From: a virus
Virus record (IMG/VR): IMGVR_UViG_3300025652_000032
Location: 1-64,000 of that record
DNA length: 64,000 nt
Reading direction: 5' to 3' (one strand)
Positions 17,126-45,130 of the stretch are shown piece by piece; positions within the stretch are counted from its first letter, which is position 1, and the number at the start of each line of letters is the position of its first letter. The notes beneath the pieces were generated by a model. It was not told where the DNA came from and ran no database searches. It worked only from the letters and a program-made list of their open reading frames with translations. The position numbers were made by a program, and so were the translations under genes.

Positions 17126-20212
<3,087 letters not shown>

Positions 20213-20217
<5 letters not shown>

Positions 20218-20960: not shown

Positions 20961-21905
20961 TCAATCCTTAATATTTTGAACAATTAGTACGATAATAACA
21001 GATGCTGCCAATCCAACCATTAACTTCAAGAAATCTTTCCCTACAATCGGGAACACTTTCTTGATACCATCTTTCTGACGGAAAGAGGCAATGGCAAGTT
21101 CTCTACCAGTAAGAAGTCCGACGAACACCCAAGTTGTTGACATAGGAATGTCGTTTACTTCCTTGAAGATGTATAGTATAACAAAGTAAAAGAGATCAAT
21201 CAAGGTTGCAGATCGAACATATTTCGTATTTTTCTTCTGTACTACGATCTCCTGAATCCTACCACCTCGGTGCTGAAGCATCCATGCAAGTCCACCAACG
21301 AACACGGCGGAGATTATAAACATCACTTCAACTGGAATCTGTCGTGGAAGATATACGGCGATGTTTGCCATATCATGACTCAACCATGTCCACCAAAGGA
21401 ATCCTGTGGTTATCCACTGAGCAATCATCCACTTTCGTTTATTCGATTCTTTGATACTCTTACCTTCATCGATCAGGCGAGTGAGCATCAACCAGATGAA
21501 ATATGCGGCAACACCTGCAACAGCATACCCAAGCATCGACTTCATCAGAACCTTCTGTAGCACCAGTGTTGATGCAAAGGCAGAAAGCACTAGGAATGAA
21601 GTAGAAACGGGAACACCGAAACGGGTCAATACAAGAAGCACTGCTGGGGCCAGTGCTTGATACCATTCTACTCCCTCAAACGGAATCTTGTTGAGTCTTC
21701 CGTAAGATATATCTCCGTCGTATGCCCACCAACCATACCAGATGGCAATAAGAAGCACAGATGAGGCGTATGCCCACATGATCTTCCAATTTACCTTTTT
21801 GTTACTCGCAATCCAAGTTCCGAGAGTCTGGATCGAATCATTTGCAATCACACTGTATGCGGCGAGGAGAAACCCTACCCACATCCATACTGAAATTTCA
21901 GACAT
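20961..21905 (-). CDS. PiT-family-like inorganic phosphate/anion permease
   Basis: Multi-TM protein with paired signature-like motifs IANDSIQ and SHDMAN, plus PVSTS and PMSTT. Confidence 0.7.
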   Translation of the reverse strand: MSEISVWMWVGFLLAAYSVIANDSIQTLGTWIASNKKVNWKIMWAYASSVLLIAIWYGWWAYDGDISYGRLNKIPFEGVEWYQALAPAVLLVLTRFGVPVSTSFLVLSAFASTLVLQKVLMKSMLGYAVAGVAAYFIWLMLTRLIDEGKSIKESNKRKWMIAQWITTGFLWWTWLSHDMANIAVYLPRQIPVEVMFIISAVFVGGLAWMLQHRGGRIQEIVVQKKNTKYVRSATLIDLFYFVILYIFKEVNDIPMSTTWVFVGLLTGRELAIASFRQKDGIKKVFPIVGKDFLKLMVGLAASVIIVLIVQNIKD

Positions 21906-29882: not shown

Positions 29883-30393
29883 TCTTCACTCCAGTGCTGC
29901 CGAATCCACCGATACGTTCGAGGTTTTCATCCTGAACTGTATCCACTTCCTCGAAGGAAAAGTTTATACGTTCACAGACCTCGCCCTGACAGATTCTGTC
30001 TCCATGATTAATTTTGAAAGGTTGTTGTGTTGTATTATGAAGCAATACGAAAACTTCCTTCCGGTAGTCTGCATCTATTATACCCTGTGAATTTGCTAAT
30101 GCAACCCCATTCTTCAAAGAAATTCCAGAACGTGCATGAAGACGAACAGAATAATTATAAGGCATAGAGAAAGCGAATCCAGTAGGCACCAGTATTCTCT
30201 CTCCTGCTTCCAACGTAATGCCGTCTTCCGAACACGGGACATCAAAGGCAGAATTAAACCTATCGTAAATAGTCACCATCTGTTTGTCCGGGACATAGGC
30301 ATGGATATCAAAACATGCCGATCCAGAGGTGGCGTGACTAGGCATAATAACATCATCATGTAGTTTTTCGATTTTCACAATTGTCGCGTTCAC
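29875..30393 (-). CDS. dut: dUTPase
   Basis: SACFD, RSG, GIIDADYR, GDRICQ, R.GGFGSTG. Confidence 0.95.
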   Translation of the reverse strand: MNATIVKIEKLHDDVIMPSHATSGSACFDIHAYVPDKQMVTIYDRFNSAFDVPCSEDGITLEAGERILVPTGFAFSMPYNYSVRLHARSGISLKNGVALANSQGIIDADYRKEVFVLLHNTTQQPFKINHGDRICQGEVCERINFSFEEVDTVQDENLERIGGFGSTGVKND

Positions 30394-31649
30394 TTCTTAC
30401 CCTTTCTCTTTTTGTATGAATTCTTCTTGCGGACTTCTTTGTCCTTCTTTTGCTTTTGTACCTCTACTTCTGCTTGTCGCTGTTCTTCTCTCTGCTTGTG
30501 TAGTTCCTGAACCTTCAGTGAATACTGACGGTGGTTCTCAAGCATACGGGTGTGTTCCGACTCGGGATAGTGCCTTTCACTGACGAGTTTCTCCATCACA
30601 TGGAACCCAACCTCGAAGTCATGACAGTAGAATGCAGTCGCACCCAGTTCATCAAGTGCCTGCCACTTGTATACTTCATCCGCGAGGAATAAAATGTCAC
30701 CATGTGGATAAGGTAGAGATGCTGCTTGCTTTGCATAAAGATATGCTGCCCTTGGCATGTTGTTCATGCGATACATCCGAGAAATCTGATGTAGAGGTTC
30801 TGCACGGATCGGTCGATAGTCATACGCCGCCATATACTTGTGTGCTTGGACATCGATCGGTTCATTGAGTAGAGAAGAACAAATTGCTACACGGAATAAC
30901 GCATAGAATGCTTCCTCTTCCCAACCGCCGAGTTCAGCACGTTTTTGATATGCTTCTGAGGCCTTCGTCCACTGTTGTGAATCGAAATAACTCTGCCCGA
31001 GATAGAACCAATATCTATGATTATCTGGTTCGTCCTTGAGTGCTTCTTCCAGAACCTCTGCATCTCTACTGTACTTTTGGATCGGTTCAATATCGACGTT
31101 TCGGTTTCCTTCTGTTCTTGCCTCAATGTGGTAGTCACCATCGATACGCATTGAAGTGATTTGCTCTCCCTCTGGAGCATTACAGTGGGCATACTCATGC
31201 AAGATACCCGAATACTTCCAACCCATATGAAGTTTGAAGACTTGGTTTCTCCACCATGTAAAATCACCGCGATGGATTTTCAGTGAGTATGAATGAGAGT
31301 CCATGACTTCTGGCCAATGGAAATTACCAGCGATAGAATCATCTGCATCAATAACCCATGCATACTCAGCATCACTCTTCTCGGCATTGTGGAGTGACTC
31401 GGTGCGTGATCCCATCTTACCGGCGTGATCACCAAATCCCTTCCAGTCAGACTGATGAACTTCACCGGGGATTCCCTTTTCATCAAAGAACTTCTTGATG
31501 ATGTCCTGTGTGCCATCAGTCGATCCGGTGTCAGTGATATCATACCTATCGATGTGAGGATAGCAAGACTCCAAACACCTTTCAATGCAGTGGTGTTCGT
31601 CCTTTACAATCATACAAAGGGTAATTTTTGGGCGTGAGTTATCCATCAA
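30390..31649 (-). CDS. GT2 glycosyltransferase with C-terminal TPR repeats
   Basis: LCMIVKDE...DTGSTDGT...IDAD; TPR RYWFYLGQSY. Confidence 0.9.
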   Translation of the reverse strand: MMDNSRPKITLCMIVKDEHHCIERCLESCYPHIDRYDITDTGSTDGTQDIIKKFFDEKGIPGEVHQSDWKGFGDHAGKMGSRTESLHNAEKSDAEYAWVIDADDSIAGNFHWPEVMDSHSYSLKIHRGDFTWWRNQVFKLHMGWKYSGILHEYAHCNAPEGEQITSMRIDGDYHIEARTEGNRNVDIEPIQKYSRDAEVLEEALKDEPDNHRYWFYLGQSYFDSQQWTKASEAYQKRAELGGWEEEAFYALFRVAICSSLLNEPIDVQAHKYMAAYDYRPIRAEPLHQISRMYRMNNMPRAAYLYAKQAASLPYPHGDILFLADEVYKWQALDELGATAFYCHDFEVGFHVMEKLVSERHYPESEHTRMLENHRQYSLKVQELHKQREEQRQAEVEVQKQKKDKEVRKKNSYKKRKGKK

Positions 31650-32527
31650 TTCATCTCCAGTTCATTTTTTATCCAATCCCCAAGAGAAGTTTCAGGGGAC
31701 CAGTTCAATTCAGTTTTAATTTTATGAATGTTCGCAAGAGTGGAAGTGACTTCACCTTTTCTCTGCTCTATATGTATTTGATTTTCTGAAATCATATCAG
31801 CAATTTCTTTCACTGAATGATTTACACCAGAACCAACATTGTAGATTCCGCCTTTGATATCAGAATCTGCCATCATTATATTGGCACGAACCACATCAGA
31901 GACATTAACGAAATCCCGTTTCTGGTTTCCCGTTCCAACAATCTCTAGAGGAAGATCGTTCTTATACCTCTCGATGAAAATTGCAATCACTGGAGGATAT
32001 GCTCCATCGACACGATGTCCGTTTCCATACACGTTGAAGTAACGAAAGGTGTTTACATTGAGATCGTTGCTGTAATACTCACACAATTGTTCAGCACAAT
32101 ATTTTGACAGTGCATAGGGATTCAGTGTTGGTTTTAGATGAGAAGACTCACATTGAATTAGGTGATCACACTCATACACGGCAGAGGTAGAGGAAAAAAC
32201 AACGCGATCCACTCCGCATTCTTTTGCCGTTTGTAAAACTCTATTTGTCCCTAGAATATTTTGTCTGGTTGTATGAACCGGATCTTTCAGTGAAACCTGA
32301 ATGCTTGCTTCTGCTGCCATGTGAAAGATCGTGTCTACATTGTAGCGATCAATAACTTCGGTGAGTAGAGGAACATTGTTGATAGAACCAACATAATTTT
32401 TAGCATCTGGGTGCCAAGTTCCGTGAGCGTTCTTGTCCAAACAAACAACTTCTCTTCCCTCAGAAAGAAGAGTCTGGACTAAGTTGCTACCAATAAATCC
32501 GGCACCACCTGTAACTAAGTAACTCAT
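31646..32527 (-). CDS. NAD-dependent epimerase/dehydratase (SDR)
   Basis: TGGAGFIG, SSTS, YALSK, RYFNVYG, RDF. Confidence 0.92.
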   Translation of the reverse strand: MSYLVTGGAGFIGSNLVQTLLSEGREVVCLDKNAHGTWHPDAKNYVGSINNVPLLTEVIDRYNVDTIFHMAAEASIQVSLKDPVHTTRQNILGTNRVLQTAKECGVDRVVFSSTSAVYECDHLIQCESSHLKPTLNPYALSKYCAEQLCEYYSNDLNVNTFRYFNVYGNGHRVDGAYPPVIAIFIERYKNDLPLEIVGTGNQKRDFVNVSDVVRANIMMADSDIKGGIYNVGSGVNHSVKEIADMISENQIHIEQRKGEVTSTLANIHKIKTELNWSPETSLGDWIKNELEMN

Positions 32528-33207
32528 TTCGGGCCCTCACAAACGTATGTCACCTTGTAATCAGAAGAAGTTGCAATCTGATCACTGAAACTCTTGTATA
32601 CTTTATAATAGAATCCCACCGAGGAGAGAACTGTTTCCAGTTCTTCATTTGTCCATATCTTATGAGTCACTGTATACGGCGTCTCTCGGAAAATTCCATT
32701 CAACTTCATCGTGTTGTTGGTGTAGTCAGTTTCCGGGATTAAGGTTAACTCGGGAGTATATACCTCTCGGGGTTCATCCTCAACAAAAGCGTCATGATTA
32801 AAACAATCAAATACAAAAATACCGGAAGACTCTAGTTTGAGTGATACTGACTCCACAAAGGATTTGAGTTCTTTCATGTCACGAATGTGATTAATCACAT
32901 TGAATAAACTTACCACAAGAGGAACTCTGACACTAATATCAGACACAGTGCCAATGATCAAATGTGGATTGTATTTCTGTAATTTGTCTCTTGCTATTTC
33001 AATCATAGACGAGGAGGGATCTACTCCATGAACTTCATATCCTCTCTTACAAAATTCTTGCAAGTGACTACCAGTTCCACATCCAATATCCAGAACCTTG
33101 GTTTGAACGGGATCAAGATCGATAACATAATCTACCTCACCAGAGTAATCTTTCTGTGAGTGTAAACTATCGTAAATGGAAACTGATATGTTGTTGTACT
33201 CAGACAT
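32524..33207 (-). CDS. Class I SAM-dependent methyltransferase
   Basis: VLDIGCGTG, GVDPS..M, GIFVFD. Confidence 0.9.
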   Translation of the reverse strand: MSEYNNISVSIYDSLHSQKDYSGEVDYVIDLDPVQTKVLDIGCGTGSHLQEFCKRGYEVHGVDPSSSMIEIARDKLQKYNPHLIIGTVSDISVRVPLVVSLFNVINHIRDMKELKSFVESVSLKLESSGIFVFDCFNHDAFVEDEPREVYTPELTLIPETDYTNNTMKLNGIFRETPYTVTHKIWTNEELETVLSSVGFYYKVYKSFSDQIATSSDYKVTYVCEGPK

Positions 33208-34126
33208 TAGAATATTGATTATCAAACTTAATTACAGAGATTCCTTGTGCCAGTTCGGAGATACCAGAATCCAGATCGATTGTAGTGTCAAACCCAAGAG
33301 AAGCGATCTTATCGTAAGACACAACATAGTCTCTCTTGTCGGCATCCTCGCCAATATCTGCAAGATGTAGGAAGTATGGAACCACCTCGTTAATCTTTTC
33401 GCATACCTCTTTCTTGCTAAAGTTCATCTTATCACTACCGACATTATACACATTACCAATCATCTTGTCAAGATTTTCAAGGGCAAACATGAAAGATCTT
33501 GCGATATCATAAACATGAATAAATGTCCGCATGAAGTGTGATTCATACACAACAATGTATCTGTCTTTCACTGCCTTCTTTGTAAAATCATTCACAAGAA
33601 GATCTAGTCTAAGTCTCGGTGAAAGACCAAAGGCAGTAGCAAACCTATAAGCAACAGCGTTTGAGTTGTTCATAATATACTGCTCTGCTTCTGTTTTTGT
33701 TGTGCCATAAATACTTAACGGATTGAGTGGACTTTCCTCGGTACAGATGCCGTCCACTCTACCATAATTACTTCCAGTAGATCCAAACAGTATGATCTGA
33801 TCGTCGTTCAGCATGTCAACCAAAGACTTAGTTGCCTCTAAATTCACAGCGGTAGTGATCGCATGATCTTTTTCGCAGGCGGGATACCCGACGATCGCAG
33901 CGAGGTGAATTACAACATCCTTACCCTCGACAACAGATCTCAACTTCTCAGTATCTCTAATGTCTCCCTCGACGAGACTGAAGTTTTTGTTCTTAAAGTG
34001 TGGGAACATACTATTCCCACCGAAAAGTAATGCGTCGTAAACACATACTTCATGTCCTGCGGCCAGTAATTCTGGAACTAAAGTGCTTCCAAGATAACCC
34101 GCACCACCCGTCACTAAAATTTTCAT
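33200..34126 (-). CDS. NAD-dependent epimerase/dehydratase (SDR)
   Basis: TGGAGYLG, HLAAIVG, YGTTK, RFATAFG. Confidence 0.92.
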   Translation of the reverse strand: MKILVTGGAGYLGSTLVPELLAAGHEVCVYDALLFGGNSMFPHFKNKNFSLVEGDIRDTEKLRSVVEGKDVVIHLAAIVGYPACEKDHAITTAVNLEATKSLVDMLNDDQIILFGSTGSNYGRVDGICTEESPLNPLSIYGTTKTEAEQYIMNNSNAVAYRFATAFGLSPRLRLDLLVNDFTKKAVKDRYIVVYESHFMRTFIHVYDIARSFMFALENLDKMIGNVYNVGSDKMNFSKKEVCEKINEVVPYFLHLADIGEDADKRDYVVSYDKIASLGFDTTIDLDSGISELAQGISVIKFDNQYSNV

Positions 34127-34332
34127 ATTGTTTGCCTTCCCATTTTTATTTTGTTCCAGATTCTTTCGTAAAAATAGTAAACGAAAAATCCGGTAAGATT
34201 CATTAACAATGCGTTCATTAGTGCCTCACTAGAAACACCAGATAATAAAACCAAGTAACTATTCAGTATCGCAACAATCCTCCAAAGGATAGTTTTTGTT
34301 ATACTTCGAGTTTTGGTTTCCTTGAATGACAT
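34123..34332 (-). CDS. Small membrane protein (DUF2061-like)
   Basis: ETKTRSI.KT..WR...YY.YERIW.KI..G; TGATG overlap. Confidence 0.7.
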   Translation of the reverse strand: MSFKETKTRSITKTILWRIVAILNSYLVLLSGVSSEALMNALLMNLTGFFVYYFYERIWNKIKMGRQTI

Positions 34333-34835
34333 CAGCGTCCTATGACCGACCAATCAATAACATATGGATCAATTCTTAAATCGTCATTCATTGCTTCCTC
34401 GAACCGAAGATTGCTGAGTGATGTAAGAACAGTTCTATCTTCAAGACTAATCCAACCATTAGCATACAACGGAGGGACATACAAGACTGCATGATGTCGA
34501 TCACTCATGATAAAAGTCTGAACACTATCTGGATTGTCTTTGGCATACTGGGCAATCTCTTCTCTATCATTTCGATCAGCAACTTCCTCTGGAAGTTTGA
34601 GTGTCTGGAATTTTGCGGCACCACATGCGATAGTAAAAATCTTGGCCTCTAATTTGTGATAGTGCAGTCCCCGGATAACGCCTTTGCCGTAGTCTCCAAC
34701 AACATAACACCTACGAAAAAGTTCGTGATCAATGTCGTCAGTGATCGGTACTAGATAACCCCGATCATCTGATATCGATGGCACCTTTAGTAAAGTTGGT
34801 TCTGTAACACCAGAGTGAATTTTGTACATTATCAA
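34332..34835 (-). CDS. RmlC-like cupin sugar epimerase/isomerase
   Basis: DDRG, IRGLHYH, VPP.YANG. Confidence 0.85.
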   Translation of the reverse strand: MIMYKIHSGVTEPTLLKVPSISDDRGYLVPITDDIDHELFRRCYVVGDYGKGVIRGLHYHKLEAKIFTIACGAAKFQTLKLPEEVADRNDREEIAQYAKDNPDSVQTFIMSDRHHAVLYVPPLYANGWISLEDRTVLTSLSNLRFEEAMNDDLRIDPYVIDWSVIGR

Positions 34836-35947
34836 TGTCTCCCATAATATTTTTTGATTGTATCACATACATGCTGAACTTGATCTGGTTCCAGTGCCGC
34901 ATATGATGGTAAACAAACTCCTTTGTTATATGCAGTCACTGTATTATCGAAGGAGTATTTTCTATACCTTCTATGCTTTATGTATCTCTTGAAACATGGT
35001 TGCATGTGTAGTGGGTAGAAAAATGTTCTAGGTTCGATTTCCTGTTCACTCATAAAAGACATGAGTTTTTCTGAGGACTCTTCTTTGACTTGTAACACTA
35101 CTCGGAATGGGATGAACGATGTTATGTTTTCGTTTGGTTGTACTACTTCGACTTCATCAACATCACACAGCATCTCGGTATACATCGCATGAACTTTACG
35201 TTTTAAATCAACAATGCGATCAAACTTATTTAACTGTGAAAGACCTAGTGAGGTTTGAAGATCTGTCATTCTAAAATTATATCCAATCTCCGGGTGAATG
35301 AAAGATCCCCTGTCGAGTCTTCCCTGATTTCTCAGGTACTTAAGACTCTCCGCAAACTTTTCATTGTTCGTTGTAACATAACCACCTTCTGCTGTTGTGA
35401 TTGTCTTGTCTGCGAAAAACGAAAAACAAGATATATCACCAAAACTACCACACGGTTGTCCCTTCCACTCGATGCCAAGTGCCTGTGCTGAATCTTCAAT
35501 GAAGATCAACTTATACTTTTCGGCAAAACTTCGAACCTTATCCATGTCACAACAAAACCCATACAAGTGTGCTGGCATAATCGCCTTGGTTCGTCGGGTG
35601 ATTAGTTTGACACATGAGTCTGGATCTAATTGAAAGGTATCTTTGTCTATGTCCGCAAAAACAGGAGTTGCTCCAGTCATCTCAACGGCGTTTGCTGTAG
35701 CGATGAAAGTAAAATCTGGAACAATGACCTCATCACCCTTACCAATACCTGCTGCACGAAGTGCCAAGTAAAGTGCAAGCGTACCATTAGGTGCGAAGGA
35801 ACCATATGAAGTGTTCGTCATTGATCGGAGTCGTTCATCAAACTCCTTAGACTTTGGACCTTCTGTTATCCAATTCATTTCAAAAGATTGTCTTAGTGCC
35901 TCGTAATCTTCCATGTCCACATAAGGCATAAACTGGGGTACTTTCAT
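34832..35947 (-). CDS. DegT/DnrJ/EryC1/StrS PLP sugar aminotransferase (perosamine-synthase-like)
   Basis: NGTLAL, GDEVIVP.FTF.AT, EDSAQ, SFFADK.ITT.EGG, GYNFR. Confidence 0.95.
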   Translation of the reverse strand: MKVPQFMPYVDMEDYEALRQSFEMNWITEGPKSKEFDERLRSMTNTSYGSFAPNGTLALYLALRAAGIGKGDEVIVPDFTFIATANAVEMTGATPVFADIDKDTFQLDPDSCVKLITRRTKAIMPAHLYGFCCDMDKVRSFAEKYKLIFIEDSAQALGIEWKGQPCGSFGDISCFSFFADKTITTAEGGYVTTNNEKFAESLKYLRNQGRLDRGSFIHPEIGYNFRMTDLQTSLGLSQLNKFDRIVDLKRKVHAMYTEMLCDVDEVEVVQPNENITSFIPFRVVLQVKEESSEKLMSFMSEQEIEPRTFFYPLHMQPCFKRYIKHRRYRKYSFDNTVTAYNKGVCLPSYAALEPDQVQHVCDTIKKYYGRH

Positions 35948-35948
35948 T

Positions 35949-36731
35949 TTAAACTCGTCTCCTGTAGTACGAAGTAAATCCATTATCAATCGGTTTGTGT
36001 GTGTAGATTTTTTCCAACCCGGCGATCTCTGCTAGTTTGTCCATCGTATCAATGCTGAAAAAGTATAAGTGTTCGTTTGGGATTATATGTTTCCACAGCA
36101 CCTTTTCTTTTCTATGCGTGTCGCATTCGATATCGTGTGTTCCAATAACGATGATCCCATCATCTTTCAGTCTTTTAGTTTTTTCCTGTAAAAACTTTAT
36201 AGGATCGGATATGTGTTCTATCACATTAAAACTACAGATGATATCAAAGTCTTCGTTATCGTAATCATGCAAGAGTGATCGAGAAAGATTAACTTCATAT
36301 TTATCAACACCGTAGTCAATATCAAACTGGTTGAGATCTATACCATATGCATCGAACCCTGCCTTTTTTGCTGCGTTGACTAAGAATCCCTGACTACAAC
36401 CGACATCTAGAAATTTACCCGAGTGTCTATTTACATTTTTCTGTATGAAAGAAATTCTTTCGTCAGAAATAAACTCGAAGTCATCAACTCTATCCTGTAT
36501 GTCCAATTCACCTACGCTAGTTTGATAGTCTTGCCAGTAGTTGTTTTCATAAACATCAATCATGGACTCCCTAAGATTTCTTGGGTGACAATAAATCAAC
36601 GAACAACAATCACACTTAACGATATCCCGTCGTTCACCAATTTGCTTGTGTGTCGGTATATCATCAAACGAATAAACAGGAGAGAAGTTCTCCGATCCAC
36701 ATAGTAAACATGTATTACTCTCTTCTATCAT
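35949..36731 (-). CDS. Class I SAM methyltransferase with N-terminal Zn-ribbon
   Basis: CLLC...CDCC; FLDVGCSQG; NVIEHI.DP. Confidence 0.9.
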   Translation of the reverse strand: MIEESNTCLLCGSENFSPVYSFDDIPTHKQIGERRDIVKCDCCSLIYCHPRNLRESMIDVYENNYWQDYQTSVGELDIQDRVDDFEFISDERISFIQKNVNRHSGKFLDVGCSQGFLVNAAKKAGFDAYGIDLNQFDIDYGVDKYEVNLSRSLLHDYDNEDFDIICSFNVIEHISDPIKFLQEKTKRLKDDGIIVIGTHDIECDTHRKEKVLWKHIIPNEHLYFFSIDTMDKLAEIAGLEKIYTHKPIDNGFTSYYRRRV

Positions 36732-37600
36732 AGACTGTCTATTGCTTTTTTTATAGTGGGCCACATATTGTATTCGTTTAAGATTAGTTGCCTTGCTTCG
36801 GAAACCGCATCAAGTCTGTCATCATAGTCACTTGGATCATTCACGATATCCAAAAGTCTGTCTATTTCATTGTAGTCATCAACATCAAATCTGTCAAATG
36901 ATTTCTCTGGAAAATATTCAGAATTACCTCCGCCCCAGAAAAAAGGAACAGACCAACACAACATGGCATCAGTGAATTGAGTACCGAAGAAATTTGTAAT
37001 CGTATTTTGATTATCGTATGTCAAACTGTATTTGTAATCCAACAGACCAGTTCTTTTATCATTGTTTTCTAATGCACCATTTGCAAAAGAAACGCCACCA
37101 TATAAGTCTAACTTGTCTGGGTGTCTTTCAATAAACTCACGGGTAAACTTTTTGCGTTTTACATGACCGTAGTTCATCTCTTTGTCGGATAGAATACAGG
37201 CGAAGTTCTTGGTCTTCGTTGGTGGTTCTTGGTTCATCAGTTCATCATAAGTATACCCAATGCCTCCACTGTGAACGCTAGGGTATCGCCACTTCACCCA
37301 TAAATGACCTGTGTCATTCCAGAAGGAGAAATGTCTACAGTCACTTTCGTGGTATCGATTTATTTCATTCGGAGTTAGGGCCTCCCTCGAAAAGTACAGT
37401 CTTTGTTCGGGTTCAAACTTAGACCATAGAGACATATCACACAAGTCTTGCACGATGAGATAATCGGCACTATTTGAATCAAATGTGTATTCAATGTCTT
37501 CCCACACACCCGACGACTCTGGTGTCTGGTGTCTGTAATCTTCTACCATCTTCTCACTGGAAAGTCCCCAGTTCGGGGCAAAATAAATTTTCTTAGTCAC
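36728..37600 (-). CDS. GT10 (fucosyltransferase)-like glycosyltransferase, divergent
   Basis: LDLYG...K..GL.DYKYSL.YDN....F.GTQF.DAML....PF.WG. Confidence 0.7.
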   Translation of the reverse strand: MTKKIYFAPNWGLSSEKMVEDYRHQTPESSGVWEDIEYTFDSNSADYLIVQDLCDMSLWSKFEPEQRLYFSREALTPNEINRYHESDCRHFSFWNDTGHLWVKWRYPSVHSGGIGYTYDELMNQEPPTKTKNFACILSDKEMNYGHVKRKKFTREFIERHPDKLDLYGGVSFANGALENNDKRTGLLDYKYSLTYDNQNTITNFFGTQFTDAMLCWSVPFFWGGGNSEYFPEKSFDRFDVDDYNEIDRLLDIVNDPSDYDDRLDAVSEARQLILNEYNMWPTIKKAIDSL

Positions 37601-38463
37601 ACCATCTCCTCAATCTCAGGAACACTATACAATTCTACTTCGTTTGAATATGGTCCATCCTCTAGAATCTTTTCGTGTAGGTTCTCGCCCTTCTGAAGTC
37701 CTATCGTTTTGATCTTCAATTCCCCATCTGAAGGAAGATATTTGTTTGCCATTGCCTGTAAGAGATCTTCAATTTTCATCGCTTTCATATCCGGACAATA
37801 CGGAGTTGTGTCTGTTGAATTTTCGAGACAAGAGAAAATTAAATCAATGGCCTGTTCGCGGGTCCAGAAAAACCTAGTAGCAGACGGATCGGTTACAATA
37901 ACCTCTTTGTTTTGTGAAAGAAGATCTCTCCATTTACAAAGAACAGAACCAGTGGAGTACAGAACATTCCCATAACGGACAATTCTATAATTTGTGTTTG
38001 GGTTTATTCTGGCATATTCATGGAACAGTCCCTCCATGAGAAGTTTCGTTGCACCGTACATGCCCACGACTTGTGCTGCTTTGTCTGTGCTGATTCCCAG
38101 TACAAAGTCTAAGGATTTTCCTAGAGTTAAATCAAGTAGGTTCATGCTCCCTACCGTATTACTGGCAATACATTCTCGCGTATGGGTTTCCGCCATACCA
38201 ACATGCTTGAATGCTGCTAAATGAAACACACCAGAAACATCTGCAATCGTCTTGTGTAAACAATGGGGATGTGAAATATCACCGGGAACAATTTCTAACC
38301 ACGGGAACTTTTGCTTGGTTTGTACTAAGTTTCCCTCGTTTCGAGATACAGTTACCACATTAGTACAACCGAAATCTTCTAGTCTAGCAAGAAGTGCCTC
38401 ACCAAGAAATCCAGAAGCACCAGTTACCAAATACTTTTTATCAGGACTAATAACACTCATCAT
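37597..38463 (-). CDS. UDP-GlcNAc 4,6-dehydratase (PseB/CapD family)
   Basis: TGASGFLG, HLAAFKHV, ISTDKA, YGATK, RYGNV..S.GSV, TRF. Confidence 0.9.
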   Translation of the reverse strand: MMSVISPDKKYLVTGASGFLGEALLARLEDFGCTNVVTVSRNEGNLVQTKQKFPWLEIVPGDISHPHCLHKTIADVSGVFHLAAFKHVGMAETHTRECIASNTVGSMNLLDLTLGKSLDFVLGISTDKAAQVVGMYGATKLLMEGLFHEYARINPNTNYRIVRYGNVLYSTGSVLCKWRDLLSQNKEVIVTDPSATRFFWTREQAIDLIFSCLENSTDTTPYCPDMKAMKIEDLLQAMANKYLPSDGELKIKTIGLQKGENLHEKILEDGPYSNEVELYSVPEIEEMV

Positions 38464-39257
38464 CAATCTCCATAAATCAAAGTCAACCAATCACGATCAG
38501 TCCACTCTTGTTTAAAATTACCAATTTCTTCAGGTCTATCACCATAAAGTTCTTTTACTTTATTTATATCTTCTTCTCGCATACCAAGAACATTCAATTT
38601 TCCGCGATATGCATTATCACTAATCAATTCAATCTTCTTAACACACCATCGATCGGCCGATCCTAGAATTTTATATCCATCACCCTCTGCTGATCGGCCT
38701 CCTATTATTTCCCAGTCATGTATTGACCAATCCCGTTGTAGATTTTTTAGAAAATATTTTCTGTTCCATATGGAGATTTGTCCTGTTATCCTATAGATAA
38801 ATGAAGTTACAGATCTTTGTCGAAGTTCTAAAATTTTAAAATCACCAAAGTCTTTGTAAACACTCACATCTTCTGGATTTCTGGCGTGTTGAATTGAAGG
38901 TTGCAAGTCTATTCTCCCAACCTTCTCATCATCAATTTCTTTCAATAGAGTTTCGTACACTTCTCGATCAAAAGGTCTTGCCATGTAGTAATCATCAATA
39001 CCAAAAATGAAATGCTCGTCATCGATCGACTCGAAAAAATCTATGATATAATTAGACCAACCCTTTGATCGACCCACTTGTTCTTCTGCCATAGAGATAA
39101 ATTCAAAATTGGAGGGCAGTTCAAAATCAGGTTCCGAAAATCCCAAAACCTTAACTTCGAAATCCTCGCCCCAATACTTGTTGAAAAAATATGCAAATCC
39201 TTCTATTGCAAATAAATGAGGATCACATGTTGCGATGTATACTTTAAGATTTTTCAT
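38463..39257 (-). CDS. Hypothetical protein, possible GT-A fold
   Basis: IFGIDDY acidic motif, SIWN..Y; inside the glycosylation operon. Confidence 0.5.
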   Translation of the reverse strand: MKNLKVYIATCDPHLFAIEGFAYFFNKYWGEDFEVKVLGFSEPDFELPSNFEFISMAEEQVGRSKGWSNYIIDFFESIDDEHFIFGIDDYYMARPFDREVYETLLKEIDDEKVGRIDLQPSIQHARNPEDVSVYKDFGDFKILELRQRSVTSFIYRITGQISIWNRKYFLKNLQRDWSIHDWEIIGGRSAEGDGYKILGSADRWCVKKIELISDNAYRGKLNVLGMREEDINKVKELYGDRPEEIGNFKQEWTDRDWLTLIYGD

Positions 39258-40498
39258 ATCACTTCCTCCATCAACTGAATGTCCCGAACATCTTTGGGTT
39301 CGTTTCTTTTTTCCTTTAGTTCTCGTATCACACCAAGAGATGCAACTTTAACACCATCATACCAGAAGTGATTCTTTGGGTTGAACAGTATCTCATCTTT
39401 GCCCATTGTATATTTACTCAACTCTTCGTTGTGACTGTGGATCATATGATGGCCTTGAATATCAAGATCACGGTGTAGATAGTCTAGATCTTCTCCCTCT
39501 CGTAAACCATACAAGGAAAGAACAGAACTGGCAGTAACACAATAGTTCTCTGGATCTAAGTTGTTATCTCGGATGTAGTTTCTGTAATAGTCAAACATAC
39601 ACTGAAAAGAATTGTAATGAACATGCTTTGCATTGTTCATGTGATGAATACTATTTTCGTTATAGTATAGTCTTGCAATTCGCATCGTCTCTTCGTGTGT
39701 GTCGTTGATATGACACGAATGCTTTCCTATACCGAAGATGTTTCGGATAGATTCTTTCAACTGAACCATGTCTACAGACTCATGTGGTACAATCAAGAAA
39801 GAGAGAATGGGTGCAGTTGTGGTAAAACAAAGTTCTGCCTTGCGGGCAAACCCAGCAAAGTTTTGAGTCCATCCCAATCCCCAATCTTCGCCCAGATATA
39901 TCTGTCGGATGAGATTAAGAGGCGCATTGTTTTTCCAACCGAAAGACTTCACATAGACAACATCAGAAGTCTTGTTTAGCAGTTCCCATGCTGATTGAAT
40001 CTTTTCATTGTCGTGTGTCACGGAGGGGAACAAAGTGACAACTAATGTATTCGGAACCAGTCTTACATACTCAGTTGCCATCGCATCAAGATTAAACGTA
40101 GACAAACCCCTAGATGCAAACATACTGCTACTGCAATCTAATTGTCCTTCGTTTTCCGTTGCTTCGTGTGTATCAACTTCTTTGTCGTATAGTATAGATG
40201 CTGCAACTCTATGTGAACCATTTATCAGATAGTTCTCATAAACTGGTAGAGTTCCTTTGGTCGAATCAAACCCATCACTGGAAATTGAATCGAGTATGCC
40301 ATCGAAAGTAGATTTGAAACTCTCGAAAGTATTCTTGTTGGAGTTGTCTAATTCATCGAAACTGTTCCATGCATTTAGGTGTGATGCATATACATCCTCA
40401 CCAAAGGACGTATCATAACCTGCATCTCTATACCTTGCGTATAAGTGCTTTGCTGGAATGTCGAATCGATTATTCTTTAGAAGAGTCAGTGGGTTCAT
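39254..40498 (-). CDS. Hypothetical protein with ParB/Srx-like N-terminus and nucleotidyltransferase-like C-terminus
   Basis: INGSHRVAA; SSVLSLYGLRE..DLD. Confidence 0.5.
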   Translation of the reverse strand: MNPLTLLKNNRFDIPAKHLYARYRDAGYDTSFGEDVYASHLNAWNSFDELDNSNKNTFESFKSTFDGILDSISSDGFDSTKGTLPVYENYLINGSHRVAASILYDKEVDTHEATENEGQLDCSSSMFASRGLSTFNLDAMATEYVRLVPNTLVVTLFPSVTHDNEKIQSAWELLNKTSDVVYVKSFGWKNNAPLNLIRQIYLGEDWGLGWTQNFAGFARKAELCFTTTAPILSFLIVPHESVDMVQLKESIRNIFGIGKHSCHINDTHEETMRIARLYYNENSIHHMNNAKHVHYNSFQCMFDYYRNYIRDNNLDPENYCVTASSVLSLYGLREGEDLDYLHRDLDIQGHHMIHSHNEELSKYTMGKDEILFNPKNHFWYDGVKVASLGVIRELKEKRNEPKDVRDIQLMEEVI

Positions 40499-41229
40499 AA
40501 CGAATTTAGTTTTTCATATGGTTGCCGTTCCTTCAGCAACTTTTCAATTCTCAATTGTTCATGTGGTACTTTACGGAAATCCGAATTTTCATTTTGTTCA
40601 TTGTAAACGTAAAGGGGTTCTGGGATGAAAACAAATCTGTCTCCAGACATCTCAAGCATTGGCCACATGAAGGTCAAATCACCAGCGGCCTTAAACCACT
40701 CTCCGTCTATGTCAATGAAGTCATCAGTATTTATGTTCAATACCAACTCCCGACGAAATGTTCTCAAGTGTGTTGCTCTCCAACGATCTTTACGGAATGC
40801 ATTATTGTTTACAATATCATCATGATAACGATCGTGACCCCAAACAGCAGTTCCAGAACTTGTCTTATACATCGAACCATATGACATCCACACATCTTCA
40901 GTGTAGTACCTATCAAGTGTTCCTAGAACATTGTCGTGAGGTAACCAGTCATCAAAGTCCAGAGTTACGATGATAGATCCTTCTCTGGCCATTTCAGATC
41001 CCTCGTATACATTTTGTGTTTGATACTTTCTAGTTTCGTTACGAACCACTTTCAGGTTTTCATATTTGTCTTGCTGCTCAAGAAGATATTCGTGAGTTCC
41101 ATCATCAGTCTGTGCATCGATTGCAATAACATCAAAGTTATCGTGCTTCTGTAGCAAGGCAGATTTTAGGGATTCTTCAATCCACGAACGGGAGTTGTGT
41201 CCCATCATCAAAATAGTGTAGTGATTCAT
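40495..41229 (-). CDS. GT2 glycosyltransferase
   Basis: IDAQTDDGT, LDFDDWL, H.RTFR. Confidence 0.85.
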   Translation of the reverse strand: MNHYTILMMGHNSRSWIEESLKSALLQKHDNFDVIAIDAQTDDGTHEYLLEQQDKYENLKVVRNETRKYQTQNVYEGSEMAREGSIIVTLDFDDWLPHDNVLGTLDRYYTEDVWMSYGSMYKTSSGTAVWGHDRYHDDIVNNNAFRKDRWRATHLRTFRRELVLNINTDDFIDIDGEWFKAAGDLTFMWPMLEMSGDRFVFIPEPLYVYNEQNENSDFRKVPHEQLRIEKLLKERQPYEKLNSL

Positions 41230-41963
41230 AGTAACTCCAACAGTTCTTTTATTGCCATGCTGTATACGCTATAGGGGCGGATAGAGTGACAATCAATATA
41301 CTCCCCCGATTGTACCATACTTTTGTCGTATGTCCAGTTAGTTCTATCAATTCTTTTATTTAACGCCATCATAGGCACTGGTTGACAAACGCCTCCTCCG
41401 TTATCACGAAACTCACAGATCTTTCGGGAAGAATGAACTTCATCAATATTCCACTTTGACAGTGGTGCTTCATCAGGCCAATCGTTAGGTCGGTGTTCGA
41501 AGTTCTCGTCAACAGAATCAGAAACCTTACGACAGTAATCGGGAAACGAGTTCTCAATCTCTAGAACATCTGCAAACACTTTACCCTTTGCCATATTGTA
41601 ACAGATGGGGAAGTAGTCGGCGTTGCTGTTTAAATTTGTCCAAACACACTGCGAATATTCTACGATGGCGGCCTGCCAATACTTCTTCGACATGGGGAAC
41701 ATATCAATGTCACTTGTTATCCATGTTGTATTTGGTTCTTTATGTGTGTACCACATTCGAGAGAGTTGTGCCTGAGTATGAATAGGAACTGTTTCGTCTA
41801 CGGGCATGGAATGAACCTGTCCATGTTCGGCGGACGGTTCTTTCTCCCCGACATGAACAAGGACAGGTTCGATTCCCATTTTCTCTTTCCACACCCACGA
41901 CACCAACGGCCAGAAGTCTAGGTAGTATGGGTTATCGTCACACGACATGATCACTTTTGGCAT
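41226..41963 (-). CDS. Putative glycosyltransferase (DxD)
   Basis: TSDIDMFP; C-terminal YIDCH..RP. Confidence 0.55.
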   Translation of the reverse strand: MPKVIMSCDDNPYYLDFWPLVSWVWKEKMGIEPVLVHVGEKEPSAEHGQVHSMPVDETVPIHTQAQLSRMWYTHKEPNTTWITSDIDMFPMSKKYWQAAIVEYSQCVWTNLNSNADYFPICYNMAKGKVFADVLEIENSFPDYCRKVSDSVDENFEHRPNDWPDEAPLSKWNIDEVHSSRKICEFRDNGGGVCQPVPMMALNKRIDRTNWTYDKSMVQSGEYIDCHSIRPYSVYSMAIKELLELL

Positions 41964-42631
41964 AGTGCTTCCTCCAACACTTCTAGATCATGCTTCCAGT
42001 TGCCTCCCGGTTTGTCATTCTCGTCGAAACATTGTCCAACGAAATCAACACCGTCACTGGGTCGTTCTGTGATAGGGAAGTCTGTGTCTGTAAAGAACGG
42101 ATCGTGTACCATGCAGTTCTTCAGAGATAGAGGATGCACATGCTTCCAAAGGAACCACTGATCCTGACTCTTCTCATCTGTTGCATTGAACTCTTCCATC
42201 ATTCGAATGATGTTTGGAACTGCTCCGCCGCGGCAACCCCACATACCACCGAGCATCGGAACGCCGTGGTATGGGTGATCTCGCATGATATGAAACTGTT
42301 CACCGGAGTCAACCCACTCGTTGATGGCGGCAACTTCTCTCTCACAGAACCGACAGTCAGTATCACGCGAAATCATATGTGTGATACTGGTGTCTTCTGC
42401 CGGTTCGAATCGCCAGAACATACCCAGAGATCCGGGTTCTTCTGTTCTCATTTCAGTTTGTACGTTGGGAAATAACTCAAGACTTCGAACGATGGCAGAG
42501 TCTACAGTATCGGCAATATAGAACCTACATGTCCATTCGGGTAGCATCTCCATCGCCTGTTTTGCATTTTTAATCGCGCCAATCGTGTATACTGGATTGT
42601 CGCCCCATAATGAATAAGTAATCAATTTCAC
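41951..42631 (-). CDS. Putative glycosyltransferase (GT-A-like)
   Basis: YSLWGD.P.Y..GA, MFWRF, RDTD, HIMRDHP.H, GGMWG; GTGA overlap start. Confidence 0.6.
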   Translation of the reverse strand: MKLITYSLWGDNPVYTIGAIKNAKQAMEMLPEWTCRFYIADTVDSAIVRSLELFPNVQTEMRTEEPGSLGMFWRFEPAEDTSITHMISRDTDCRFCEREVAAINEWVDSGEQFHIMRDHPYHGVPMLGGMWGCRGGAVPNIIRMMEEFNATDEKSQDQWFLWKHVHPLSLKNCMVHDPFFTDTDFPITERPSDGVDFVGQCFDENDKPGGNWKHDLEVLEEALCQK

Positions 42632-43260
42632 GTTACGATAGACTCCGTTTCCTCTGAGGACCACTGATATACATGAAGGAAGTCATCTAGAGCAACGCTC
42701 TCTTCCACCTTCGGGTACAATCGAGACAACCAATCAATGTCTTCACAGGACTGACCAGTCTGTGGATGATATACACTCCTGAATGGTTCTGATTGTGCAA
42801 GTGTTCTCTTCCACACACAGAAATGATAAGGAGGTCGTAGTGTATCTTTGAATCCCTGTGAATAACCATCAGCAACAGGCACAACTGGTTCGTGTGGATT
42901 GCCCATTTTCAAGAACACCCTAGCATGAACACCGTTGAGGTAGCAGTCTTGATTGAATGAAATGACATCAGCGTTGGGATTTTTCTCTATAGTTTCCGTC
43001 AACCGTTCGATGTAATTGTCTGCTACATCATCGTCGTCATCCAACCATGCGATGTGAGTTCCTCTTGCCATCCGGAGAAGTTCATTCCTCTTCTCCCAGA
43101 TGTGCAGGGACTTATTATCGATAACACAAATGACCTCTACATCTTCTCGATCACCAATCTGACCGAGGAGTTTGTCTTGGAGGACTCTGTACTTGTCAAG
43201 TCTCGACGGGATCGAGAGCATCAGTATACTAAATTTTATATCTTCTTTGTTCTTAGGCAT
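42628..43260 (-). CDS. GT2-like glycosyltransferase
   Basis: EKRN.L...ARG..IA.LDDDD. Confidence 0.8.
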   Translation of the reverse strand: MPKNKEDIKFSILMLSIPSRLDKYRVLQDKLLGQIGDREDVEVICVIDNKSLHIWEKRNELLRMARGTHIAWLDDDDDVADNYIERLTETIEKNPNADVISFNQDCYLNGVHARVFLKMGNPHEPVVPVADGYSQGFKDTLRPPYHFCVWKRTLAQSEPFRSVYHPQTGQSCEDIDWLSRLYPKVEESVALDDFLHVYQWSSEETESIVT

Positions 43261-43966
43261 GATTAAGTCTCTTCGCTACTTCCTGAACATCAAACTGAAG
43301 TTCACTTTTTCTTTTGTTGAAAACGCCGCCGTCCTTCTCGTACATCTCAGGACTTTCTTGCATCGTGTGTAGTTCGTCGGATTCTTCATGACCACCGGGA
43401 ACCCACTCATGTTTGATGATACACGTTTCACACACGGCGAATCGACCAAGCATCATACAGAGTTCTGTCATCTCAGTGTCACAATAAATGCTGGTGTAGT
43501 CTGGATGATACCAATGTCCAATTGCATCGTATAGTTTCTTTCCCATGACAGGCAGTGTGCAAAGAGCATCATTCCGAAGTCCGTCATTGAACTTCACTGC
43601 ACCATCAAATTCAGGGAAGGTTCCCTCGAACACCTGAGCAATGATATCATCATATTCTTTCAGTTGAGGGATCATATCATCCGATGCCAAAAGTCCCACA
43701 TCGAAAGTTTCGCCTTCCATGTTTGCATTACATGCTTCAATTTTGGTTTTAGAGTGACCATAGTATGCAGTTAAGTTTACGCCACTTTCCTGTAGGGACG
43801 CAAACCAGTTTCGGACTTCGGGGTTGTTCATTGTCTCGTCATCTTCGTCGCATGTAATAACAAAACGTACATCGTGCTTACCAGATAGGTAATCGATGTA
43901 CATTTCTAAAACTTGTTTGAATTTGTCAGGACGGGAACGGGTGGGAAACTTAATCAGTAGTCGCAT
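43253..43966 (-). CDS. GT2-like glycosyltransferase
   Basis: KFPTR.RP, ASDDMIP, YCD.E, KHEW. Confidence 0.75.
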   Translation of the reverse strand: MRLLIKFPTRSRPDKFKQVLEMYIDYLSGKHDVRFVITCDEDDETMNNPEVRNWFASLQESGVNLTAYYGHSKTKIEACNANMEGETFDVGLLASDDMIPQLKEYDDIIAQVFEGTFPEFDGAVKFNDGLRNDALCTLPVMGKKLYDAIGHWYHPDYTSIYCDTEMTELCMMLGRFAVCETCIIKHEWVPGGHEESDELHTMQESPEMYEKDGGVFNKRKSELQFDVQEVAKRLNHA

Positions 43967-43984
43967 AATATAAATCCTTTTATT

Positions 43985-44407
43985 CTATTTAGTCCGACCT
44001 ATATGGTACTTGGGACAAAGTTCCCAATCACCTTTTTCTTTGTAAGGAAGAATCTTTATCTGGCTGATTGGAACTGCTGGTTCCTCTGCTTTGGCAGGTA
44101 AGACTATCTCTAATAGTTCCCATTCTTCCAGCAATTTAGCAATCGTATTTCTTCTTCCGATATCGTTTTCTGCTATGTCAGTTGGCAGGCCGTCCAGTGC
44201 AAAGAGTTCTTTGAAGTGGACGATGTAATACTTACCTCGTTTATGTAAGATATGGCATGACTGATATAACTTCTTTTCTTTTCTGGACGATACACCAATT
44301 CGCGTGAGCGTCTCTTTAATCTTCAAAAAATCATCTGGTTCATATAAGGTGATTTCGAGTAAATCACTTACTTCAATATTCGATTGTCCCATTTGTATAA
44401 ACTCCAT
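43985..44407 (-). CDS. regA: Translational repressor RegA
   Basis: DDFLKIKETLTRIG...LYQSCHILHKRG.YYIVHFKELF.LDG. Confidence 0.95.
   Translation of the reverse strand: MEFIQMGQSNIEVSDLLEITLYEPDDFLKIKETLTRIGVSSRKEKKLYQSCHILHKRGKYYIVHFKELFALDGLPTDIAENDIGRRNTIAKLLEEWELLEIVLPAKAEEPAVPISQIKILPYKEKGDWELCPKYHIGRTK
43986..43992 (-). promoter_or_regulatory. Late promoter variant heading the glycosylation cluster
   Basis: CTAAATA overlapping the regA stop, followed by AAGGA RBS and ATG 43966. Confidence 0.6.
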
Positions 44408-44447: not shown

Positions 44448-44831
44448 CTAACCCTCTCTTTTGGACATCATGTCCACAATTTCAGACACAGTTTCCTTTG
44501 GTAACACGTTCAGTGCTTCTCGGGCCTTCGCTTCAGAATACTCAAAGTAATCCATGACTGCTTGTAGATCATCCGGATTCTCTCTCTTCAACCACTTACT
44601 GAACCGCTTTCTCTTCCTCAACGAATGTAGATAGAAATCAAACTGCATCTTCTTTGATGTATCTGGTCTGATATTCATCTCATTCACATAAAAGATTGTG
44701 TCTGGGAAGTACGATAGACATCGATTCATAACGAAAGGGACGTACCCCTTCTCGATGGATTCATCATCCGTGTCGAGAAGAGGCACCTTGGTGTGGTTTA
44801 CTGCATTTAGATAGTCACCCAACTTCGTCAT
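44448..44831 (-). CDS. gp62: Clamp loader small subunit
   Basis: Y.PF..NR.LSYF.D....VNEMN...QFDFY...LRKRKRFSKW. Confidence 0.9.
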   Translation of the reverse strand: MTKLGDYLNAVNHTKVPLLDTDDESIEKGYVPFVMNRCLSYFPDTIFYVNEMNIRPDTSKKMQFDFYLHSLRKRKRFSKWLKRENPDDLQAVMDYFEYSEAKAREALNVLPKETVSEIVDMMSKREG

Positions 44832-45130
44832 GAAATCTCCGTGTCCTTATCAACAACAGCGATAACTCGATCATGAAGGACTATATCAAATCCACCGAAA
44901 CCTTCCATACCCTGCGAGTAATCATACATCACATAATCACCCACCTTGTATCCGAGTTTCATTTCTTTTCCATTAGACAAAACAGTCGGATTGCCAATAG
45001 AAGAAACTATACCAATCAGATACTTGGGATGTTCCCTTGGAGTGTAAACAACTCCAGCATCCGTGGTTCCCTTTTTTACATTCCTCTTGATCACAACTTT
45101 CCCTCTGACGGGATAAAACTTTTCACTCAT
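44828..45130 (-). CDS. groES: GroES-like co-chaperonin
   Basis: P..GKVVIK...TDAGVV...G.V..IG...KVGD.V.Y...VIAVV. Confidence 0.75.
   Translation of the reverse strand: MSEKFYPVRGKVVIKRNVKKGTTDAGVVYTPREHPKYLIGIVSSIGNPTVLSNGKEMKLGYKVGDYVMYDYSQGMEGFGGFDIVLHDRVIAVVDKDTEIS

Follow-up and report, generated by a model that had tools for sequence, protein, structure and literature searches.

A candidate glycosylation island for collagen-like virion fibres in a marine T4-like phage

The window analysed here, 64,000 nucleotides of the IMG/VR virus record IMGVR_UViG_3300025652_000032, is the first half of a single linear entry of 128,029 bp from an uncultured, marine, T4-like phage, and it carries on its minus strand, at positions 30390 to 43966, an island of sugar-nucleotide and glycosyltransferase (GT) genes. 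Such an island raises the question of what its glycan is built on: a protein of the virion, the surface of the host cell, a host protein or the DNA of the phage. An earlier note on this DNA had read the cluster as a system acting on a Thr-rich collagen fibre of the virion. We assign a probability of about 0.55 to the reading that the island is a cytoplasmic protein-glycosylation system for collagen-like virion fibres. Documented below are the fold and the conservation of its last enzyme, a family 2 GT with tetratricopeptide repeats (GT2-TPR), and the linkage of this enzyme to collagen-like genes, as well as how variable the rest of the island is and which parts of a lipid-carrier machinery were looked for and not found. 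Central to the argument are the following features:

30390..31649, minus strand: GT2-TPR glycosyltransferase (Pfam GT2 and TPR), the last gene of the island, its conserved 3' anchor and the proposed protein-directed (priming) enzyme
17126..19756, minus strand: 876-aa fibre, the proposed acceptor, with an N-terminal G-N-T/G-P-Q collagen domain in its translation (residues ~22-163, nt ~19268-19693; Pfam Collagen)
19753..20217, minus strand: p154, a 154-aa protein coupled to the fibre gene (phrog_1084)

The GT2-TPR enzyme and its collagen-like partners

The GT2-TPR protein has 419 aa and invariant IDADD and HE motifs, and its N-terminus reads ...ITLCMIVKDEHH. In a sequence search its only matches among GTs of solved structure were GmaR, a ThuS-like enzyme and SunS, with the N-terminal match to GmaR reaching E=4e-9. 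The AlphaFold2 (AF2) model (predicted local distance difference test, pLDDT, 93; predicted template modelling score, pTM, 0.86) consists of a GT-A core and a helical repeat domain. Foldseek ranked SunS/ThuS at the top over the full length (E~1e-14; 5e-14 to 7e-13, ~400 aligned columns), and the next GT2 enzymes, RmlT and TarS, followed at E~1e-5. Judged from this model, GT2-TPR is built like the enzymes that put sugars on peptides or proteins, and since both its fold and its only solved GT relatives belong to protein or peptide GTs, the resemblance to protein glycosyltransferases claimed in the earlier note is borne out. Membership of the SunS family (TIGR04195) was rejected, the protein scoring 36.4 bits against an NCBIfam cut-off of 350. 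The full-length GT-A and helical-repeat architecture is what GT2-TPR has in common with SunS/ThuS and Listeria GmaR, its best structural and sequence matches, whereas its identity to them is 15-19% and a glycocin precursor, an exporter or a flagellar context was not recognised among the island open reading frames (ORFs) or the flanking genes.

The precedent of Clostridioides difficile SgtA is as the earlier note had stated it: this GT-A enzyme with TPR repeats is encoded directly upstream of bclA3 and puts beta-O-GlcNAc on Thr/Ser of GPT collagen peptides in vitro (PMC7157674). With the phage system it has in common a GT-A domain with DXD followed by TPR repeats, a soluble cytoplasmic enzyme and, in most related loci, the pairing with a collagen-like gene, and the GPT triplets of BclA3 are resembled by the G-x-T triplets of the window fibre. 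The two enzymes are likened by architecture, SgtA having 358 aa in a spore former and GT2-TPR 419 aa in a phage. The systems differ in that GT2-TPR and fibre are 10.6 kb apart in the window, that a 12-kb hypervariable sugar island is attached here and that most partner collagens of the phage lineage lack Thr.

Nearly 3,000 metagenomic homologues of GT2-TPR were found, the best 120 of which are 53-91% identical to it and ~420 aa long, and tblastn in the phage collection gave 6 distant records only, without a cultured cyanophage or pelagiphage. Two viral contigs (L007:9950-18270 and L008:2748-9670) hold three tandem GT2-TPR paralogues, 33-37% identical to the enzyme of the window, inside ORFs of ~420-1060 aa and with no collagen nearby.

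A profile scan of IMG/VR with GT2-TPR returned 80 loci, and in these the enzyme is strongly linked to collagen-like genes. Where at least 2.5 kb of sequence was available downstream of GT2-TPR (58 loci), a same-strand collagen-like ORF was present in 42 and lay within 2 kb in 40; its place was between GT2-TPR and the dUTPase gene in 28 of 30 loci, and no collagen run occurred in any of six frames over 609 kb upstream of GT2-TPR. Control T4-like loci gathered with a profile of polB, the family-B DNA polymerase (80 loci, 801 kb), held GT2-TPR in one case and a collagen run in none, which gives Fisher p values of 7e-8 to 3e-21 for the pairing, over loci that are not independent. Co-occurrence of enzyme and collagen, proposed in the earlier note as a check on its reading, is thus found in the relatives and absent from the controls, and it recurs in unrelated phages and in bacteria. 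In the soil jumbo phage Tunturi_5 a distance of 3.7 kb separates a 34%-identical homologue from a 1469-aa tail fibre that is packed with GPT/GAT triplets, and in one of three huge phages (LR756502) a G-x-T collagen lies 6.5 kb from a GT2-TPR homologue. Of the bacterial loci with 35-42% identical homologues (78 loci, L090-L167), nine have a strict collagen gene immediately before the homologue and in its orientation; the proportion of Thr at Y is mostly 0.5-1.0, and the nine loci come from Mycobacterium, other Actinomycetota, Thermoanaerobaculia, Deltaproteobacteria and Binatia. By eye, about the same number of further bacterial loci have PGRS-like Gly-rich genes upstream that are not true collagen. 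The strict association in bacteria is modest (9/78), and a bacterial collagen-glycosylation pair may be widespread, to judge from these gene neighbourhoods. Homologues of GT2-TPR as such were seen in Mycobacterium, other Actinomycetota, Planctomycetes, Thermoleophilia, Binatia and Deltaproteobacteria.

The partner collagens of the phage lineage are of two types. Type A (39 loci), the first ORF after GT2-TPR in L017-L089, has about 330-630 aa (most 350-490), ~57 charged triplets with almost no Thr, a variable N-domain and a conserved C-domain of ~130 aa; the latter had no Pfam or PDB sequence match, and a profile search against PDB sequences was uninformative. Type B comprises long fibres with G-x-T runs, that of the window included. 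Among the 53 loci with at least 4 kb downstream of GT2-TPR, 31 had a charged collagen, 14 a Thr-rich one, 7 both and 15 neither. In the window fibre Thr occupies the Y position in 31 of the 40 triplets of the two main collagen runs, or in 67% when short flanking runs are counted. As a general acceptor, however, Thr at Y does not stand, since it holds only for a minority of the partner collagens, and the acceptor site could lie in the flanking domains or in p154 instead. The remainder of the 876-aa fibre is a repeat-containing body, and tail-fibre PHROGs match outside the collagen part too.

Homologues of p154 were present in 29 of the 80 loci, usually directly after GT2-TPR, between this enzyme and the collagen gene; in the window and in L001, L003 and L016 the p154/fibre pair is displaced ~10 kb downstream. 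The protein may be a fibre adaptor or chaperone, or may itself be an acceptor. A G-x-[TS]-G motif is enriched in p154 (z=4), and z exceeded 3 in only 6 of 100 proteins, with the fibre dominating; the motif was not used as evidence. A profile search of p154 against PDB sequences was likewise uninformative, with one 'structural protein' at E=7e-4.

The enzyme might also be directed at a host protein such as a flagellin, a pilin or a receptor, as a means of takeover or exclusion. GmaR-type enzymes act on flagellin, and the GmaR match given above, together with early promoters upstream of the gene (see below), would suit such a role. This explanation gives no reason, however, for the kept adjacency to phage collagen-like and p154 genes, and we hold it to be very unlikely.

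Gene content of the island and the absence of export machinery

The interval from 30390 to 43966 holds 17 ORFs on the minus strand, three more than the 14 genes counted earlier. All of their junctions abut or overlap by 4-41 nt, in line with the tight translational packing noted before, and this packing runs on into the dUTPase, DUF1599 and polB genes. Besides GT2-TPR, the island comprises the following ORFs (SDR, short-chain dehydrogenase/reductase; SAM, S-adenosylmethionine; NDK, nucleoside diphosphate kinase):

31646..32527, minus strand: GalE-like SDR 4-epimerase (Pfam Epimerase/GDP_Man_Dehyd; best PDB match UDP-glucose 4-epimerase 4zrm)
32524..33225, minus strand: SAM-dependent methyltransferase (Pfam Methyltransf_25/23/11)
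33200..34126, minus strand: SDR epimerase/reductase (Pfam Epimerase, RmlD_sub_bind)
34123..34353, minus strand: 76-aa DUF2061 protein (Pfam DUF2061), the sole island ORF with a hydrophobic segment/membrane span in a hydropathy scan
34332..34835, minus strand: cupin, either a 3,4-ketoisomerase (QdtA/FdtA-like) or a 3,5-epimerase (RmlC-like) (Pfam dTDP_sugar_isom, FdtA; PDB matches QdtA, RmlC)
34832..35989, minus strand: DegT-family sugar aminotransferase (Pfam DegT E=6e-110; PDB matches 7b0m, perosamine synthetase, QdtB)
35949..36764, minus strand: SAM methyltransferase (Pfam Methyltransf_23)
36728..37600, minus strand: 290-aa ORF, no Pfam, NCBIfam or PHROG match
37597..38490, minus strand: PseB/CapD-like UDP-HexNAc 4,6-dehydratase (Pfam Polysacc_synt_2 E=6e-58; NCBIfam PseB/FnlA below cut-off; best PDB match FlaA1/PseB 2gn4)
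38463..39257, minus strand: 264-aa ORF, no Pfam, NCBIfam or PHROG match
39254..40498, minus strand: 414-aa protein with, in its structure model, an NDK-like domain in the middle and a nucleotidyltransferase fold at the C-terminus
40495..41229, minus strand: GT2 glycosyltransferase (Pfam Glycos_transf_2 E=5e-17)
41226..41963, minus strand: 245-aa ORF, no Pfam, NCBIfam or PHROG match
41951..42664, minus strand: 237-aa ORF, possible GT-A (GT8/Nucleotid_trans-like) transferase (Atlas feature match of 0.92 to GT8/Nucleotid_trans clusters, a lead only)
42628..43260, minus strand: GT2 glycosyltransferase (Pfam GT2 E=4e-8; PHROG 8858)
43253..43966, minus strand: glycosyltransferase, first gene of the island (PHROG alone: phrog_14945 E=9e-15)

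The PseB/CapD dehydratase, the DegT aminotransferase, the cupin, the two SDRs and the two SAM methyltransferases named earlier were all recovered by Pfam, NCBIfam or PDB sequence search. The estimate of about seven GTs was too high: hidden Markov models support four (43253-43966, by PHROG only, 42628-43260, 40495-41229 and 30390-31649), to which the ORF at 41951-42664 adds one weak lead. Six island ORFs and p154 had no Pfam match even at E=5, and three ORFs were matchless everywhere searched.

The SDR at 31646-32527, just upstream of GT2-TPR, is likely the maker of the donor sugar of that enzyme. As to the sugar itself, the amino-sugar enzyme set proposed earlier stands; because the best solved match of the cupin is the 3,4-ketoisomerase QdtA, a 3-amino sugar is as possible as the 4-amino sugar named before. 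Some DegT homologues are methyltransferase-DegT fusion proteins of ~618 aa, and because these mirror the adjacent methyltransferase-DegT pair of the island, there is some support for a methylated amino sugar as the putative product; the methyltransferase at 35949-36764 probably acts with DegT on that sugar. The search for DegT homologues gave no pointer to the host.

The 414-aa protein was modelled by AF2 with a pLDDT of 96. Foldseek with this model returned nothing at E<=0.001 and phmmer against PDB sequences nothing meaningful; VIA-align matched residues 147-285 to NDK (Z 9-11) and residues 295-414 to the nucleotidyltransferase fold (Z 8-9.6). A GT assignment was ruled out, the model not having a GT fold in either structural comparison. 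The family is without a Pfam model and has D337 and D339 invariant within the consensus stretch G.DLDY, and the protein may be a LicD/FKRP-like glycan-decorating enzyme, as far as the modelled fold goes. In homologues of 660-675 aa a GT2 domain precedes it at the N-terminus, a fusion that is frequent in marine metagenomes, and because of this the GT2 at 40495-41229 and the 414-aa ORF are read as a split form of the fusion protein.

The earlier note had recognised no exporter, initiating transferase or pseudaminic/neuraminic acid synthase in the cluster. This holds across the 128-kb record (~71% complete) for initiating transferases of the WecA and WbaP types (PF00953, PF02397), for the flippase Wzx (PF01943) and for NeuB; for Wzy and ABC exporters it holds at the level of the island, where no ORF matched such a Pfam family, no record-wide search for these families having been made. 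A hydropathy scan found no multi-span membrane protein in the island. With a Wzx/Wzy- or ABC-dependent O-antigen or capsule locus the island therefore has nucleotide-sugar enzymes and several GTs in common, whereas the initiating transferase and Wzx were not found here. Neither does it correspond to a pseudaminic or legionaminic acid pathway, whose NeuB-type synthase was not found in this phage record, and the PseB and PseC models of NCBIfam score below cut-off on the island proteins.

These absences bear on a different explanation, namely that the island sugars and GTs feed the undecaprenyl-linked O-antigen or capsule pathway of the host, remodelling the cell surface and blocking superinfection or grazing. 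It is the published interpretation of the GT clusters of pelagimyophages and cyanomyophages (PMC7029224, PMC12801897), the island resembles O-antigen loci in its enzyme families and its hypervariability, and it contains early promoters of the sigma-70 type. Nevertheless, a WecA/WbaP-type transferase and Wzx were found neither in the 128-kb record nor in the 25 commonest families of 144 representatives of related island genes (Wzy, ligase and ABC exporters were not searched directly), and host-surface remodelling leaves unexplained why a SunS/SgtA-type GT anchors each island and why this GT is tied to collagen. We consider it unlikely overall, although it may apply to the variable genes.

Insertion site, turnover and expression of the island

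Read along the minus strand, the genes for the gp44 clamp loader, a GroES-like protein, gp62 and regA are followed by the island and then by dUTPase, DUF1599 and polB. Because regA and dUTPase-polB flank it in T4-like gene order, the 13.6-kb island is an insertion into the conserved T4 replication module. The closest cultured relatives of the polB product are the gp43 proteins of T4-like cyanophages, at ~55% identity, and the island itself had no megablast match among 50,697 phage records. For 17 control T4-like loci the sequence reached 7 kb or more upstream of polB; regA lay in that stretch in 15 of them, and GT2-TPR or collagen in none.

All 80 related loci carry GT2-TPR, with a median identity of 57% in comparison with 62% for polB, so that the enzyme is about as conserved as core genes. 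The remainder of the island turns over. Its 716 ORFs across the 80 loci fall into 281 clusters, and the only recurrent upstream genes are the adjacent SDR (55/80 loci) and the ORF corresponding to 41951-42664 (15/80). Even in three relatives whose polB is 97-99% identical, the island shares with the window only the SDR and GT2-TPR, and carries a GDP-mannose dehydratase, a sulfotransferase, a GT10-like enzyme and a class III aminotransferase. The 144 cluster representatives matched 93 Pfam families, of which the 25 commonest listed are soluble sugar-nucleotide enzymes, GTs and methyltransferases; no initiating transferase, flippase, polymerase or ABC exporter is among these 25. Some of the related islands hold NeuB with a cytidylyltransferase (nonulosonic acid), phosphoenolpyruvate mutase with a thiamine pyrophosphate enzyme (phosphonate), a sulfotransferase, or GT10, GT25 and GT47 enzymes. 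The glycan chemistry predicted from these genes is very wide within one phage lineage.

Since only GT2-TPR and the neighbouring SDR are conserved, a mixed arrangement has to be weighed, in which GT2-TPR, perhaps with the GalE-like SDR, puts a simple sugar on the collagen-like protein and the variable genes form an unrelated accessory island in the regA-dUTPase slot. SgtA alone adds GlcNAc only (PMC7157674), and the regA-polB slot, which is empty in the control T4-like phages, may be a general insertion hot spot. Against this, the island ORFs are co-oriented and overlap unbroken into GT2-TPR, and each of the 13 relatives in which regA was in range carries 5.4-9.2 kb of sugar genes in this slot, where nothing else was seen. 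Such an arrangement appears unlikely to us as well.

The placement of the island in the replication module, beside the dUTPase gene and a weak, below-cut-off match to DUF1599 ('nucleotide modification associated'), could also suggest hypermodification of DNA, with the sugars attached to modified bases of the phage genome, and phage GTs that place diverse glycans on DNA are known (Pyle 2024). Several features of the record speak otherwise. Over its whole length AGCT was observed 0 times against 125 expected under a maximal-order Markov model, while GGCC, GATC and TCGA occur at expectation and GTAC, ACGT and GCGC are mildly depleted (0.63-0.68); the absence of AGCT points to restriction pressure on unprotected DNA and so argues against hypermodification. 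The ThyA-homologue dCMP/dUMP hydroxymethylase of T4-type DNA glucosylation (PF00303, which covers ThyA and hydroxymethylase homologues) was not found in the incomplete 128-kb record, where ThyX is present. GT2-TPR itself has a peptide-GT fold, and the alpha/beta-glucosyltransferases of T4 have a fold other than this one. Glycosylation of DNA is accordingly very unlikely.

The promoter-like elements of the island are:

43986..43992, minus strand: CTAAATA, late-promoter-like motif, 19 nt before the first ATG of the island
33443..33471, minus strand: perfect sigma-70 consensus promoter (TTGACA-17-TATAAT) inside the island, directed towards GT2-TPR and polB
36869..36897, minus strand: second, near-consensus sigma-70 promoter inside the island, directed towards GT2-TPR and polB

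Of all occurrences of the hexamer TAAATA, 23% fall 8-55 nt before a start codon, whereas permuted hexamers do so at 2-11%. It stands before the first island gene and the p154/fibre operon, and also before structural genes, one of which is presumed from its position to be gp23, the major capsid gene. Ten near-consensus sigma-70 sites (<=1 mismatch, most with C or T before TTGACA) all fall in bases 1-55,000 of the record (window 3307-54558), the early/replication half, and none in the structural half. Counted overall, sigma-70-like sites are no more numerous in the island than in shuffled sequences, and only the near-perfect ones are meaningful. The island is probably expressed both early and late, as far as these motifs indicate. 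Late expression was dropped as a discriminator: with a late-type motif upstream and early-type promoters inside, timing does not separate the readings.

Some neighbouring ORFs of the window were noted besides. A GroES-like co-chaperonin ORF (phrog_3188) lies at 44828-45130, between the gp44 and gp62 clamp-loader genes. A 341-aa ORF at 12313-13338 matches the phosphate-selective porin family Porin_O_P (26.9 bits, above cut-off) and a 314-aa ORF at 20961-21905 has a weak PHO4 phosphate-transporter match below cut-off; by these matches the two are possible auxiliary genes of phosphate uptake.

A glycan coat for the virion and its implications

In the reading that we favour, glycosylation of collagen-like virion fibres, the soluble enzymes of the island (PseB/CapD-like dehydratase, cupin, DegT, two methyltransferases and two SDRs) would turn host UDP-HexNAc or UDP-hexose into unusual donor sugars, the product being a methylated 3- or 4-amino-dideoxyhexose and an epimerised hexose. 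GT2-TPR would grip the acceptor protein with its TPR-like domain and add the first sugar to Ser/Thr (or Cys), a priming step proposed by analogy with the action of SgtA on BclA3, of GmaR on flagellin and of SunS and ThuS on glycocins. Extension and decoration of the glycan would fall to the remaining GTs and the protein with the nucleotidyltransferase fold, and the glycosylated fibre would go into the virion. Because acceptor and priming enzyme are kept while the sugar genes turn over, the island could be a serotype-like locus of the fibre glycan coat. We put forward tentatively, at somewhat below even odds, the wider proposal that a SgtA/SunS-like GT2-TPR, p154 and a collagen-like fibre form a conserved module in an abundant lineage of uncultured marine T4-like phages, with the hypervariable sugar island as serotype locus of the glycan coat of the virion itself.

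A number of points weigh against fibre glycosylation. The GT islands of pelagimyophages and cyanomyophages have been interpreted as modifying the O-chain of the host (PMC7029224, PMC12801897). O-antigen GTs are soluble too and need no membrane span, so that a phage could borrow the flippase and ligase of its host, and with a CheckV completeness of ~71% part of the genome lies outside the 128-kb record. In the majority of loci (31 of 53) the partner collagen is a charged one in which Thr at Y is nearly missing, and 15 of 53 loci have no collagen in the examined flank. In the window itself the fibre gene is 10.6 kb from GT2-TPR, as against <=2 kb in 40 of the 58 related loci. The 80 phage loci belong to one lineage, and their counts are not independent events. 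The two internal sigma-70 promoters imply that the island is expressed early and along with polB, a timing that does not tie it to assembly, and glycosylation itself is deduced from gene content, fold and linkage.

Comparable arrangements exist elsewhere. Giant viruses (Mimivirus, chloroviruses) decorate their fibres or capsid by means of their own amino-deoxy sugar pathways and GTs, without the endoplasmic reticulum machinery of the host, which in their case is a eukaryote. Among phages, virion glycosylation by phage-encoded enzymes has to our knowledge been demonstrated only in mycobacteriophages. There, phage GTs are reported to act likewise on virion proteins in the cytoplasm, with gene sets that vary between relatives (Freeman et al. 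2023, PMC10527164), and the glycans sit on the C-termini of capsid and tail-tube proteins, whereas the present phage belongs to a marine T4-like lineage and its suggested target is collagen-like. The clusters of pelagimyophages and cyanomyophages (PMC7029224, PMC12801897) have in common with the island hypervariable GT and nucleotide-sugar genes, often near fibre genes; they differ in that tblastn did not find GT2-TPR in the cultured members of the phage collection.

Glycan islands of marine T4-like phages, the SgtA/BclA3 pair and virion glycosylation in mycobacteriophages are thus already known. The combination of GT2-TPR, p154 and collagen with a hypervariable sugar island appears undescribed, and the passages searched in PMC7029224 and PMC12801897 do not mention it. 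Closely related phages, with polB 97-99% identical, carry differing glycan gene sets. The GT2-TPR family and G-x-T collagen-like proteins in bacteria point to a wider, undescribed pairing, and if the proposal is right, the enzyme-collagen pair would be an ancient cassette common to phage, Actinomycetota and other bacteria. Many of the genes now counted as 'lipopolysaccharide (LPS) auxiliary metabolic genes' of marine myoviruses would then be virion-glycosylation genes, with consequences for host recognition, for escape from recognition by host or grazer, for the stickiness of particles in sea water and for auxiliary gene counts in viromes.

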